From: Takakia lepidozioides
Lineage: Eukaryota > Plantae > Bryophyta
Direction of reading: 5' to 3'
NCBI GenBank assembly: GCA_030704615.1
Contig: CM060734.1
Span: 992,001 to 1,056,000 of the forward strand
DNA length: 64,000 bases
Within the stretch, counting starts at the first letter, position 1. The number at the start of each line of letters is the position of its first letter. The notes beneath the pieces are model-generated. The model searched no databases, was not told the origin of the DNA, and saw only the letters and a program-made list of their open reading frames with translations. A program made the position numbers and the translations under genes. This document shows, piece by piece, positions 20,347-25,486 of this stretch.

Positions 20347-20490
20347 CTATCCAATGCAATGTGGACATAACCAATCCCCATCCGGAACCATCTCAAGAGG
20401 TGGAGTGAAACATCCCATATGCCAACCTCTAGAGCACCGATCACACACCAGCATGGTGGCTGCCCCTTTAGCAGACCCACACAACATGCA
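20347..20490 (-). pseudogene. PHD zinc finger (C4HC3) at the integrase C-terminus
   Basis: CMLC...MLVCDRCSRGWHMGCFTPPLEMVPDGDWLCPHC. Confidence 0.93.
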
Positions 20491-21850
20491 CCTCAAACCT
20501 GCAGATACCACTGCCAGGTTTGGGTCAATCCTGCCATCGACATTCGGAAGGTGACATGGCGCACAATTACGCACATGGTCCTTCCAAGTTATGCCATCCC
20601 GACCCTCCAAGACCAAGACGCCTGAGGGCAAGACCTCTCGAACCCTCAAAATAACACGTCCTGCAGTCACATCCAGGGTCGTAGGAGCAGTCTGCTGCAG
20701 ATAGACATAGTCACCAGGGTTGAATCTCCGAACCCCAGGACATTAGCCCCCACCACGTATGGTAGCATACCTCAACGTATCACGGGGTTGTGCAATGGCA
20801 AGGTTCTTGAAAGCCATAGGCATGACTCTCTTGAACAACTCTGCACGCTGCTCACATGCACGTGCACACACATCCGGATCGTCAAGGTTAAGAACTGTAG
20901 CAGCTTCTCTGCGAATGGATGTAGGCAAATCCGGCTCTCGGCCAAAGAGAAGAAAGTATGGTGAGAAGGAGGCAAGTGATGCTTGCTTGCTGAACCTGTA
21001 GCCCATGACTAACCAGGGTAACTGAAGGTCCTAATCTCCTAGGTGTCCCTTCTGCAAGCCATACTTGCGCAAACCCCTCTTTACTGTCTGAACAACTCTC
21101 TCTGCCAAGCCATCGGCCTCAGGAGAAGTGGTGTAGTGGTCTATCAAGGCCTTGTCACACAACGCCTGAAACTCCCCCAAGAACTCTCTCCCTTGGTCCG
21201 TGAGTACCTCAGCTGGAGCACCGAATCGGCTAAGCACACAATCCAAGAATGCATACGCAGCTCCCTCACTAGCCTTATCAGGCAATGGAACCAATTCAAT
21301 CCACTTGGAGAAGTGCTCCACCATCACCAACACATACTTGTTGTGGCGCATGGTCAGTGGCAACGGCCCTGCGAAGTCAAGACTCCACCTGTAGCCCAAT
21401 CCCATGATCGGAAGAGGGTGCAATTGTGGAGTAGGGGCGTTGAATGAAGCACGCACCTTGTCACACGCCATGCACCTAGCCACAAATTGTTGCACCTCTG
21501 TGTGCATACCACGCCACCAATACTGCCCCTGTAGTAGACTATGAGTGCGTCGCACCCCAAAATGCCCCAACTCCTCATGGGCATGCGCACTAACCGTGCC
21601 CGCTGTGTTGGGTGAGGCACAATCCTCACTCGACCATCCTCCCACACTCGGAGCAGGTGTGTCCCCTCCCACTTGAACCTCTTGGCTCGTTGTAGGATCC
21701 GATCCCTCTCCTTGGCAGTCACAGTGGCTGCCGTGTCTCCAGTGCGGAGGTAGTCCAACACAACTGAATCCTCATGTAATCTACAGTCATCCCTGTTGCA
21801 GGTCCAACCTGGCCTTCCGCTGCCAAGATACACAGAAATGCAGATGCATG
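20491..21850 (-). pseudogene. Gypsy DDE integrase (HHCC plus catalytic core), frameshifted
   Basis: HEELGHFG...CMAC; WSLDFAGP; VLTDQGREF; DGLAERVVQTVK; SPYFLLFGREP. Confidence 0.92.
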
Positions 21851-23304
21851 CCATCCGGGCACCATCTCCTCGTCCGTCTCACCATGCCACCGAGCTCCAG
21901 TGTCATCCTGTTGGCTCGTGCATGGATTGCGACTCAACCCATCTGCATTGCGATTGACCAAACCCGGTCGATGCACCACCTGAAAGTCATACTCTTGAAG
22001 GATGAGTGCCCACCGTGCAAGCTTCCCCGTAAGCTTGTCTGACTCCATCAACCACTTGAGTGGTTGGTGATCCGTGACAAGGGTGAAGAGATTGCCGTAT
22101 AGATAGCACCTGAAGTGTGCCACGGCCCACACTGCAGCTAAGCATTCTCCCTCATATGAGCTATACTTAGACTCTGCAGTGTTGTTTGAGCGGCTAGCAT
22201 AAGCCACTACGAACTCTCTTCCCTCATCATCCACCTGTGTGAGCACCGCTCCAAGCCCCAACATGCTCCAATCTGTATGCAGCTGAAAAGGACGCCCCCT
22301 GATAGGTCGTCTCAAGATGGGCGCCGAGGTCAACCTCGCCTTGAGCTCTTGAAAAGCTTGTTCTTGCTCATCTTCCCACTGCCACTCCTGGTCCACCTTG
22401 GTCAGCTTGGTTAGAGCCTTTGCAATGGCACTAAATCCCTTAACAAACCGTCTGTAATAGTTTGCTAACCCCATGAAAGCTCGAACTCGGCTCACATCCG
22501 TGGGGCGTGGAACCTGTGCAATGGACTCTACCTTAGTCTGCTGTACCCCCAATCCTCCAGGATATATCATGTGACCCAGATACTCAATCTGGTTGTGGAA
22601 AAACTTGCACTTTCCCGGATGTAACTTCAATCCGTGCGCCCTCAAGCGCTCAAATACCCCCTGAAGGTGTCTCTCATGCTCCTCCACCGTAGCACTAAAG
22701 ATGATGATGTCATCTATGTAGCACCGAGCAAACTCCACCCTGCTAGAATCCTGTCCATGACTCTTTGAAACTCAGCGGGAGCGTTTTTAAGCCCAAATGG
22801 TAAGAACCGCCACTGGTATAGGCAATCCTTCCCGTGCTCATTGATCCCCCAGAATGCCGTCTTTTGCTTATCCGCCTCCTTGATCGGCAACTGGTGATAT
22901 CCGGATCGTAAATCCAACGTGCTAAAGACCTTGGAATGCCCAATGGCATCAAAGATCTCCTCTGGTGTCGGCATGGCATACCTATCGGACTTGGTCTGAC
23001 GATTTACAGGCCGGTAATCACCGCACATACGTCTCTCCGTCCAATTGCCATAGACATCCTTCTTGGCTGGCATCACTGTGGCTGAAGCATACTCTCCACC
23101 AGAGAGCTCCACCAAACCTGCCTCCCAAAGATCCTGAGTTCTCATCTGAATCAAGGACCTCTCCATGTCACTGTATCTATAGGGTCTCCAAAAGATTGGC
23201 GTGTCAGTAGCCAATTCAATGCGAATCTCTTGACCCTTCAGTGCTCCCAAGTCCTTCAAACTGAAGGCAAAGCAATTCCTGTAAGCCCTCAGGAACCGCC
23301 GCAT
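21851..23304 (-). pseudogene. Reverse transcriptase and RNase H
   Basis: [71 protein letters not shown]; one frameshift near 22740. Confidence 0.95.
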
Positions 23305-23418
23305 ACGTCGTCTCTCTCCTCCGGTGACAATGGGTCCAATGTCAGGCTCCCAATTGTCCTCCGTAACTGCAACCTTAAGTCCAGTGGGCTTAGAGGTAGA
23401 GGACGCGTCCCGTGGTTG

Positions 23419-24783
23419 CTATGCTGCAACCTCTTGAGCAGTACTCCCTTCTTGCTCAGTCAATGACAAGGCCTCATCCTGCCCCATCATCTCATCATTG
23501 AGAACCTCCTCAACCCGAGAAGAATCCCCAACCTCATCCATCATAGCTGCCTTGGCTGCCAACTCCCTCTGGACCTCGAGCACCTCCCACGTGTGCCATG
23601 GATGTCTACACCCCGTGGTCCTCACCGGCTCGCCCCCACTCGCTGCCTGTACCGTCTCGGTGGGCAGAGAGACCGTCAAGGGAAGTGCACTCCGCACTCT
23701 ACGTTGCTCAGCCATAGCCAAGCTGATAATCCAGGTCAAGCAATTGAGATCCATTGCTTGCCCCAACACCTGACGACGTGATGCCTCAGAAAGAGAAGGC
23801 ACCGCCGTGGTCCCAGTGGAAAACCCCATAGCCCGCTCGCGCTCGTCGGCATTAGGCTCCACTAACTGTTGCAACTGAGCATCCCACAGGAGGCCAGGTC
23901 CACCATCCCGAAAAGCATGGGATCCTGGGAAGCTGAGCAGTGTAGGTAATGCTGCTCGTGGTTGACCCACCCTGTTGACCACTGCCAAAGGCGAACGGTC
24001 ATCGTGTCTCACACGTTGAGACTGCCTTCCTGTGTCCAAAATGCCATCCACGGTGAGGTGTGTTGGCCGCTGCACCCCATCAAATGCACGCTTGAGCAGT
24101 GCGGGTGGCATCAAGTTAGTCCACCAAAGCCGTGGACGATGAGCCCGTGATCCCACTGCAGCTGCATCCAGCAGCACTGCTGACCCAAGCCACGACCGGA
24201 CTTGATGCACACTGGCCATCACCCTGGCCCGAGAATCACCCATCAGTGGCACATTCTCCAAGATGTATGCTGGAGATACAGCTTGATGAAGCTGCAAGTG
24301 GCGCAAAACCCGCACCATCTCCCAAAACAGACCCGTCCTCGAGTCTCGCAATCCATTGCCATGCCCGGCTGATGAATGCCCCTGGCAGGGCCAACCTGCC
24401 ACTACGAGATCAATGGAGCCAACCTGCTCCAAATCTTGCGCCCCCAACAAGGAAATGTTTGCTCGCAAGGCTTGTTGGTATCCACGAACTGTAGACACAG
24501 GCAACAAGTCAGGGTACTGCTGAACCAACTGAGCAACATGGCGCAGTGAGACGCGTCGTGCAGTCTCATCCCTCTCCACATACAGGTACCGCCTTACCCG
24601 CACACCTGCCTGTAGCACAGCAGCCAATCCGGTGCTGATCCCGCCAAACGAGTCCAGAAGGCAAATGCCTTCATCCATATATTGCCACACAATAGGTGTG
24701 GTATCCAATGGTGACAACTGAGGTGGTCCTGGTGCAATACCCGCACTCTCCTCCTCTCCTGACGGTACGAAAGCTTCTACCAA
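23419..24783 (-). CDS. DNMT3-like C5 cytosine DNA methyltransferase domain within the polyprotein (core ~23730-24670)
   Basis: Motifs in unpermuted order: I LLDSFGGISTG, II YVERD, IV AGWPCQ, V RTGLFWE, VI ILENVP, VIII AHRPRLWWTN, IX ERERAMGF, X RRQVLGQAMD. Confidence 0.93.
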   Translation of the reverse strand: MVEAFVPSGEEESAGIAPGPPQLSPLDTTPIVWQYMDEGICLLDSFGGISTGLAAVLQAGVRVRRYLYVERDETARRVSLRHVAQLVQQYPDLLPVSTVRGYQQALRANISLLGAQDLEQVGSIDLVVAGWPCQGHSSAGHGNGLRDSRTGLFWEMVRVLRHLQLHQAVSPAYILENVPLMGDSRARVMASVHQVRSWLGSAVLLDAAAVGSRAHRPRLWWTNLMPPALLKRAFDGVQRPTHLTVDGILDTGRQSQRVRHDDRSPLAVVNRVGQPRAALPTLLSFPGSHAFRDGGPGLLWDAQLQQLVEPNADERERAMGFSTGTTAVPSLSEASRRQVLGQAMDLNCLTWIISLAMAEQRRVRSALPLTVSLPTETVQAASGGEPVRTTGCRHPWHTWEVLEVQRELAAKAAMMDEVGDSSRVEEVLNDEMMGQDEALSLTEQEGSTAQEVAA

Positions 24784-25486
24784 GCTTGTTGCACCCGTCC
24801 ATCAGCAACCTGCTGCAAATCCTTGCTCGTACCCCACAATGGAGTGTGAGCAACCATGGCAGGCAACTCCGCCATACCATGCATGTCATCCTGCTCTGCT
24901 GGAGGTGGCACATCTCTGCATGGGCATTGCCTTCCAGCAACTCTCCAGGCCAACAAACTGCAGCTGTAAAGGCGGCTAGTGTTGGCATCTTGCCCCGCTG
25001 GGCAGCCGCTATACCCCCAATGAATGTCACAGGAAGCTGTGCACGGCGACCATCGCCTGACTGCCATCCAGGCCTGTAGGATGCTGACTCCTCCCAAAAG
25101 TCCAGGGTGAAGCCCATGGGGTATAACACTGCCCCACCCATTTGGACATCGTAAGAGACCGCGTCTGTCACAATGGCCTTGGTTCGCATTACTGAGCCAT
25201 CGATAGGATGATCCGGCTGCAGTCTAATGGCCAACTGATGCCGTGTCATGCCCCGAGCCTGCTCTGATCCTCCCAAAGATGTCTGTATCTGGAAAGGACA
25301 AGGCTCCATATCCGCCTCCATGAGGCCCAAACCTGCAATAGCAGCTCTGCCCAACATCAGTGGCTGAGCTCCCGAGTCCAACAAGACCCGTTGTGGCCGG
25401 TACTTCTTGCCTGCCGGTCCACTCAAAGTGAAAATGCCTCCCTGGTTGTCTAACAAGACAACTCCAGGTGTCACCATGGCGCTCAA
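24784..25486 (-). pseudogene. Retroviral-type aspartic protease region
   Basis: VLLDSGAQPL catalytic motif and downstream YDVQMGG (YDVLVGG in element 1). Confidence 0.8.

Follow-up and report, generated by a model that had tools for sequence, protein, structure and literature searches.

A DNMT3-like methyltransferase predicted to be made at the Gag level in a Gypsy retrotransposon of the moss Takakia lepidozioides

When and where would a DNA methyltransferase that is carried by a retrotransposon act? This question is raised by a stretch of 64,000 nucleotides of Takakia lepidozioides (GenBank assembly GCA_030704615.1, contig CM060734.1, positions 992,001 to 1,056,000; hereafter the window), which holds two decayed Ty3/gypsy elements encoding a DNMT3-like C5 methyltransferase. 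The closest described element is KnitGypsy-Dnmt3 (or Gypsy-DNMT3) of Klebsormidium nitens, reported by de Mendoza et al. in 2018 (PMC5890265). From the sequences analyzed here, it is probable that the methyltransferase is made at the level of Gag and that the reverse transcriptase (RT), RNase H (RH), integrase (IN) and PHD finger are made by readthrough of a stop codon, with many DNMT molecules per particle likely methylating CG sites of the element's own cDNA.

Both elements encode gag, protease (PR) and DNMT, followed by RT, RNase H, integrase and a PHD finger, and both are broken by frameshifts and stops. The coding region of element 1 lies on the minus strand from 27340 to 20347, and the element as a whole, on the same strand, spans 31182 to 12409. 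This is far wider than the interval 20347 to 25486 given by an earlier reading of the bare letters (hereafter the original prediction), which had missed both the leaky stop and the split-repeat ends. In the order of translation, the minus strand encodes a capsid-like gag with a zinc knuckle (25562-27340; frame broken near 25569 and 25482), an aspartic protease with the motif LDSG, homologous to that of the relative L020 (25030-25474; frame breaks downstream near 24914 and 24784), the DNMT domain (23716-24669, open from motif I to motif X), RT and RNase H (21719-23418; break near 22740), and a DDE integrase with its H2C2 and core parts (20743-21771; break near 21585, stops near 21031 and 20743). 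At the six frame breaks, the contigs of other copies differ from copy 1. Pfam matches to RT, RNase H and integrase were well over the cut-off in the window copies, and those to gag and protease were weak (E 0.03 and 0.05). The order PR-RT-RH-IN with a DDE integrase is that of Ty3/gypsy elements. Copy 2 (38047-32484) is 90-95% identical to copy 1.

The methyltransferase was recognized by the Pfam profile DNA_methylase in both copies (E 1.7e-12 in 23422-24801 and 5.4e-11 in 34356-35939). In copy 1 the motifs follow each other in unpermuted order: motif I (24654-24640), PCQ of motif IV (24393-24379), ENV of motif VI (24261-24250), AHRPR of motif VIII (24144-24130) and motifs IX-X (about 23838-23749). 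Copy 2 keeps motifs I, IV, VI and VIII, and a premature stop at about 34353 precedes IX-X. The claim that C5-methyltransferase motifs are present in both copies thus holds for motifs I, IV, VI and VIII. The best sequence matches in the PDB were DNMT3A (7e-10), DNMT3B (6e-7), DRM (4e-5) and M.HhaI (5e-4). An AlphaFold2 model of the domain (predicted local distance difference test score, pLDDT, 87) retrieved DNMT3A or DNMT3B in all 35 Foldseek rows shown from ranks 1-50 (best E 3e-19), and the modelled domain is folded like DNMT3A. The assignment as an unpermuted, DNMT3-like enzyme was therefore correct. A host plant DNMT3 gene, multi-exonic and with a DUF3444 domain, was rejected as an explanation: the present sequence is intronless, lies within the element and has DNA_methylase as its only hit. 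In the ESM Atlas, the domain matched a Streptophyta DNA_methylase cluster.

Comparison of the two copies indicated that the DNMT is under purifying selection. The ratio of non-synonymous to synonymous substitution rates (dN/dS) was 0.17 in the DNMT core (317 codons, p 8e-19), and not near 1, the outcome that the original prediction had named as speaking against it. Elsewhere it was 0.13 in RT, 0.26 in RT/RH, 0.35 in the protease and 0.27-0.38 in gag; among relatives, two pairs gave 0.11-0.12 for the DNMT, and the PHD gave 0.04-0.25 in four pairs. The DNMT values resemble the Ka/Ks under 0.2 reported for the KnitGypsy-Dnmt3 enzyme (PMC5890265). Synonymous divergence between the window copies was uneven (0.36 in the DNMT, 23716-24669; 0.09 in the capsid part, 26410-27232; 0.12-0.19 in RT/RH), which suggests recombination between subfamilies.

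We considered whether the domain could owe its retention to something other than catalysis, such as nucleic-acid binding or scaffolding of the particle. Expression at the Gag level would suit a structural function, and the Klebsormidium enzyme was inactive in yeast, a result that also weighs against self-methylation and that its authors call inconclusive (PMC5890265). Yet, the catalytic residues have been kept: among 210 near-full family domains, many of them from decayed copies, the motif IV cysteine pattern is present in 185, EN in 189 and the motif VIII arginines in 184. We regard a purely non-catalytic role as highly improbable.

The family is inferred to be very abundant and usually DNMT-bearing, because the read-out from host run X1, with 92789 contigs mapped on 19900-31400, gave a summed depth (which is not a copy number) of 0.6-1.2 million over the coding bins, DNMT included, and of 470-1229 in the copy-specific leader. 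By this rough measure, DNMT was covered as continuously as RT, and the absence of the domain from most family members, raised in the original prediction, was not what the host contigs indicated.

The position of the DNMT between protease and RT had been predicted correctly, though not as part of one plain polyprotein, since a conserved in-frame stop separates the two (23421-23419). DNMT and RT share one frame, and in both window copies the sequence between them reads TAG CAA CCA (23413-23421 in copy 1, minus strand; 33905-33897 in copy 2). This is the UAG plus CAR-YYA signal of tobacco mosaic virus (TMV), in frame. In TMV, CAR YYA after UAG is essential for readthrough, and the short product exceeds the long one by about 10:1 (PMC2754532; PMC4132726). 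Among the metagenome loci examined (L001-L053, i.e. 53 of the 70 fetched, the other 17 being weak matches), 30 carry a DNMT followed by an alignable RT start in the layout of the window. A TAG or TAA followed by CAR-YYN was found at the homologous place, 21-28 codons upstream of the aligned RT start, in 28 of these 30, as compared with a background of 105/10298 (1%). The two exceptions read TAG TAG CCA and TAG TAA CCC, each one C-to-T change away from the signal, and the second codon of the hexamer varies (CCA, CCC, CCT, CTA, TTA, TCA). In host run X1, no variant at a frequency of at least 1% was listed at 23413-23421 (1410 contigs), while positions 23411, 23424 and 23425 vary at 8-19%. The intact locus L020 has a 1369-residue gag-PR-DNMT open reading frame (ORF), the stop, and a 1047-residue RT-RH-IN-PHD ORF that lacks an early methionine. 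Five Marchantia gene models terminate 80-85 residues past the DNMT, which fits the same stop.

Because an in-frame stop with a readthrough hexamer separates DNMT from RT, DNMT and protease are likely made at the Gag level. We consider it very likely that readthrough would yield roughly tenfold more Gag-PR-DNMT than RT-IN, and this layout gives indirect support to packaging of the DNMT in the particle. Several observations temper this proposal. The exact CAR-YYA hexamer is found in only 7 of the 30 loci, 21 others ending differently and the largest subfamily having CAA CCC. Some of the 30 loci are duplicates, and the set covers only about five lineages, with DNMT identity down to 48%. One subfamily has an ATG three codons past the stop. 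Finally, some more distant relatives (L050/L051, P0043, P0058, P0248) have no stop at all, their DNMT being fused to RT, and for this reason the leaky stop is a feature of one subclade.

Could splicing or re-initiation get around the stop, in the manner of elements whose PR and RT are separated by an intron? A TAG could serve as a 3' splice site, and the subfamily with the early ATG is T-rich upstream of the stop. However, the stop is TAA, which is not an acceptor, in 8 of the 30 loci, and contigs of four runs showed no joint at the stop. Re-initiation is countered by the lack of an early ATG in the window copies, L002, L020, L027 and L046, and the conserved stretch, of the form CAR-YYN, lies downstream of the stop. 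A bypass of this kind is thus very unlikely, and readthrough remains our preferred explanation.

For the many DNMT molecules expected in the particle, we slightly favour the view that they would methylate CG sites of the cDNA or of a circle derived from it, so that the element would arrive pre-marked. cDNA methylation was proposed for DIRS elements by de Mendoza et al. (PMC5890265). The synonymous CG ratio of element 1 was 0.32/0.42, versus 0.77/0.79 for a nested element in the same genome (p 1e-4 and 3e-9), and synonymous CG was also depleted in L002 and L020. This depletion fits CG self-methylation and also host methylation. The latter can explain it because the excess of C-to-T changes at CG between copies did not exceed that of the nested element (CG/CHH 2.0 versus 2.2), and because the GC-rich L045 and L051 were not depleted (0.79-0.95); both observations detract from self-methylation as the cause.

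The PHD finger bears on the alternative that the enzyme acts on chromosomal DNA. As originally predicted, it lies on the integrase, in the place where a chromovirus has its chromodomain. Pfam identified it with an E-value of 7.4e-11 in 20350-20742, with no chromo hit, and the C4HC3 finger ends the readthrough ORF (20347-20520, minus strand). Its best matches were CHD4, PHF12, PHD1 of KDM5A/B, ATXR5, BAZ2, PHF21A and UHRF1, most of which bind unmodified H3 tails. PHD fingers of the H3K4me0 type lack the cage tryptophan two residues before the zinc histidine and have an acidic residue after the third cysteine. In 66 PHDs of the family, the position two before the zinc histidine, which we take to be the site of the H3K4me3 aromatic-cage tryptophan, was Gly in 60 and Trp in 1, and Asp followed Cys3 in 62; the window copy reads SRGWH there. 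The finger therefore resembles readers of unmodified H3K4, and it would probably tether the integrase to H3K4-unmethylated, gene-poor chromatin.

With such a reader in the same element, the DNMT could act on the new insertion site or on resident copies rather than on cDNA in the particle, the element limiting or camouflaging itself after insertion. Writer and reader would then meet on chromatin, like the ADD and catalytic domains of animal DNMT3. The resemblance of the PHD to the H3K4me0 class agrees with this. So does the layout of 37 of 321 fetched proteins, in which the DNMT follows RNase H, precedes the integrase and shares an ORF with the PHD. Plant DNMT3 has also been described to work in heterochromatin (PMC6453930). 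In the window layout, however, the DNMT lies upstream of the stop together with a protease, and RT, RNase H and integrase lie between it and the PHD, so that most DNMT molecules would be without a reader. Both the chromosomal target and the meeting of writer and reader on it appear unlikely to us, and we retain methylation of the cDNA or circle.

The ends of the elements provide a second line of argument, on how this DNA would integrate. Instead of the two full direct terminal long terminal repeats (LTRs) of Ty3/gypsy elements, element 1 consists of A, internal part, B, GC, A and B. Repeat A1 (30826-31182, minus strand) begins with TGTC and ends with CA. A polypurine tract (20088-20097, minus strand) immediately precedes B1, whose first part is at 20017-20087 and whose remainder, at about 12866-12852, lies past a nested Gypsy element. 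The right end (12409-12849, minus strand) consists of A2 (12849-12493) and B2 (12494-12409, ending in GACA). The target duplication ACCT is found at 31186-31183 and 12408-12405. Element 2 has the same design with the duplication CAAT, split by an inversion, and L031 repeats A-internal-B-A-B with AAGG; L017 and L043 are A-internal-B with target duplications. Altogether, target duplications were found for three A-internal-B-A-B insertions, two A-internal-B insertions and one rearranged copy. TGTC...GACA ends with 4-bp duplications, within the 4-6 bp of Ty3/gypsy elements, are shared by both window elements, L017, L022, L031 and L043. DIRS, PAT and Ngaro elements, which use a tyrosine recombinase and have no DDE integrase, were rejected in view of the rve integrase and the target duplications. 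Troyka elements (CG...CG ends, 3-bp duplication, animals only) were rejected on account of the TGTC...GACA ends and the 4-bp duplications.

Just after A, 15-17 nucleotides can pair with a site about 150-170 nucleotides inside A; in element 1, the predicted self-priming position (30812-30825, minus strand) forms a 15-nt pairing with 31019-31032, as compared with at most 9 nt in 200 shuffles. L031 has the pairing at the same place with different letters. ARAGORN found no tRNA gene in the window, and the primer site was not compared with tRNA ends. With a primer site after A1 and a polypurine tract before B1, standard reverse transcription would produce a linear DNA bounded by B-A at both ends, and we think it quite likely that the RNA would prime itself and that the polypurine tract would prime the plus strand to give this product.

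Inside the element, the sequences of both integrated ends, which are where A begins and where B stops, are repeated in head-to-head orientation with only two bases between them (GACA-GC-TGTC, 12846-12855, minus strand, B1 end and A2 start). This att junction is kept in L009, L031, L020 and L027, and in L050 as CA-GC-TGTCA; the 2-nt-spaced pair is conserved down to 35% DNMT identity. Such head-to-head ends make integration from a circle likely. The cDNA ends would probably be joined and the integrase would open the circle at the internal CA-GC-TG site. Opening at att of a circle joined from the linear ends would give A-internal-B-A-B, and opening of a one-repeat circle would give A-internal-B. 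The A/B join is variable in four cases (0, 0, +1 and +16 nt, the last, in L022/L023, holding 9 nt of primer-site sequence), as expected from end joining.

Alternatively, template switches of the PAT/Ngaro kind could rebuild the ends of a linear cDNA, which the integrase would use directly, the A-internal-B forms being products of recombination or of assembly. Linear DNA is the textbook substrate of integrases. Moreover, a 2-LTR circle should also yield the mirror isomer A-B-A-internal-B, and this was found at none of the 11 5' ends, a result unfavourable to the circle, although short-read collapse of the isomer's 340-bp repeats into A-internal-B could hide it. Against the linear route, the placement of the primer site after A1 and of the polypurine tract before B1 means that B2 could not be copied from the RNA, and the variable A/B join and the conserved spacing of the att pair also count against it. 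We consider the linear route possible but doubtful, and favour opening of a circle. The circular contig L050 was discarded as evidence for a circle, since repeat collapse yields the same shape.

Circle junctions are used by transposons of the IS3 and IS30 families. Among DDE enzymes of retroviruses, the integrase of human immunodeficiency virus type 1 can also open head-to-head ends with a short spacer, in 2-LTR circles; there, this is a reserve route acting at a ligated junction, whereas in the present family the repeat itself contains the site, which apparently serves the normal route (PMC4372172). Self-priming in place of a tRNA primer, as predicted here, is known from Tf1-type elements (Tcn1 and TAR lineages), and chromoviruses likewise have a reader at the integrase C-terminus, which is a chromodomain, unlike the PHD, split repeats and DNMT of the present family (PMC6317226).

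How does the family relate to elements already described? It shares with KnitGypsy-Dnmt3 the Gypsy domain set, an unpermuted DNMT3-like domain with catalytic residues, and DIRS-like A-coding-B-A-B repeats, for which the published description, as far as the main text goes, gives no replication mechanism (PMC5890265). It differs by its land-plant type of host, by a DNMT that ends a gag-PR-DNMT ORF with a conserved stop before RT, the Klebsormidium DNMT being in the Pol ORF with RT, and by the PHD on the integrase, of which the 2018 main text and the supplements searched make no mention, Fig. 4c aside. Because DNMT and RT/RNase H are not in one uninterrupted ORF, we class the family as a variant of KnitGypsy-Dnmt3 rather than as a member. 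Gypsy-7a_cRei of Chlamydomonas has a PHD in its polyprotein, proposed to steer insertion (2.6-fold intergenic bias); compared by description only, it differs in that its legend lists no methyltransferase (PMC9940879). In this active element, the left LTR is shorter and lacks the last 8 bp of the right LTR (PMC9940879), and the pair may follow the same A / A-B plan, B being tiny. In Cymbomonas and Euglena, EpiLTRs also combine DNA methyltransferases with a histone reader in LTR elements, but their set consists of DAM, a DNMT4-related enzyme and a chromodomain, and the preprint describing them names the streptophyte Gypsy-DNMT3 and sets EpiLTRs apart from it (bioRxiv 10.64898/2026.05.21.726589). 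Land-plant members are not described in the parts consulted of PMC12344493, PMC6317226, PMC10952607, PMC13468544 and PMC6453930. A literature search of openly readable papers, which did not extend to Repbase or to Fig. 4c in the 2018 article, listed no report of a land-plant DNMT3+PHD Gypsy, of readthrough or of the circle route. The first member of the lineage has been published, and the leaky stop and the head-to-head att site, two testable mechanisms, were not found in print.

Named matches came from Marchantia, Calypogeia, Riccia and Sphagnum (50-77% identity), Closterium (38-40%), Haematococcus (35%), Scenedesmus and Hariotina. None of the matches listed was named Klebsormidium or was a named host DNMT3. 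A profile search gave 479 clusters at 50% identity (E up to 1e-30), of which the best 150 were inspected, and look-ups of 20 clusters named only Scenedesmus, Closterium and Hariotina. The RT tree, a quick version, and the DNMT tree were concordant, grouping the window copy with Marchantia and metagenome loci and leaving Closterium outside. These neighbours, like the captured gene pieces of land-plant type, point to a land-plant host. A large sister clade (P0181-P0321, L044, L045, L048; Haematococcus, Scenedesmus, Hariotina) has the DNMT between RNase H and integrase, and since both trees separate the two layouts, the DNMT changed place once. The predicted land-plant family with writer and reader is indeed present, but the pairing occurs beyond land plants and is common among green-algal relatives, PHD-bearing Gypsy elements are known from Chlamydomonas (PMC9940879), and writer plus reader is the rule across a wide green-plant lineage.

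In a quick tree, element DNMTs grouped apart from those of phages; compact DNMT3-like methyltransferases of two phage contigs (L071:114-1007 and L073) adjoined the element enzymes. With a phage DNMT3-like protein as query, no named plant or animal protein was among the best 120 of 2244 matches, and the matches in IMG/VR were all weak (E 2e-19 or worse) and were read as phage DNMTs. Six algal-type relatives with the DNMT-IN layout, most with a PHD (P0046, P0198, P0234, P0262, P0272, P0319), have in their last 200 residues an extra domain resembling S-adenosylmethionine-dependent methyltransferases, with a DPW-G motif and no Pfam or NCBIfam hit; they are possibly a third kind of dual-methyltransferase element.

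The remainder of the window can be described briefly. The long 5' leader of element 1 (27365-30811, minus strand) contains captured pieces of host genes, one of monodehydroascorbate reductase (30460-30660; E 8e-22) and one, at 29440-29560 (minus strand), presumably of an RbgA/YlqF-type GTPase. The leader of element 2 is not the same sequence and holds, by homology, a piece of a LysM receptor kinase of the CERK1 type (38510-38836, minus strand; E 2e-21). Element 2 is a single insertion that an inversion of about 21 kb has divided. Its 5' part (32484-40303, minus strand) contains A, leader, gag, PR, DNMT (about 35170-34200), the stop signal, RT and RH, and its 3' tail (10897-11860, now on the plus strand) contains the PHD, the polypurine tract and B-A-B. 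The halves share the duplication CAAT (40307-40304 for the 5' part), their A repeats differ at 11 of 355 sites, and other repeats adjoin both inversion breakpoints. The younger Gypsy nested in B1 (12872-20016, plus strand) has no DNMT and has 728-bp LTRs with 4 differences in 729 columns; its family has a second copy at 2351-6980. A SWIM-finger DNA transposon-like element is present in two copies (59223-61290 and 31206-32481), and a 120-bp tandem array occupies 46176-50808.

Taken as a whole, these features would describe an ancient green-plant Gypsy lineage that normally integrates from a circle opened at att, after pre-methylation of the circle by a capsid-level DNMT3, and that is targeted by an H3K4me0 reader; we put this combined scheme forward only tentatively. 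If it is true, this would be a retroelement that uses circles like IS3-type transposons, and bryophyte genomes would have in it a second, abundant source of de novo CG methylation. The family extends transposon-encoded DNMT3 to land plants and shows that, in liverworts and mosses, transposon ORFs underlie many gene models annotated as 'hypothetical' or as DNA methyltransferases. The readthrough layout predicts when and where a transposon-borne DNMT acts, which the 2018 paper left open. It has long been asked whether integrases of the retroviral type can truly use circles as precursors of integration. The ends of this element seem to record that route, and its relatives in the model liverwort Marchantia make it testable.

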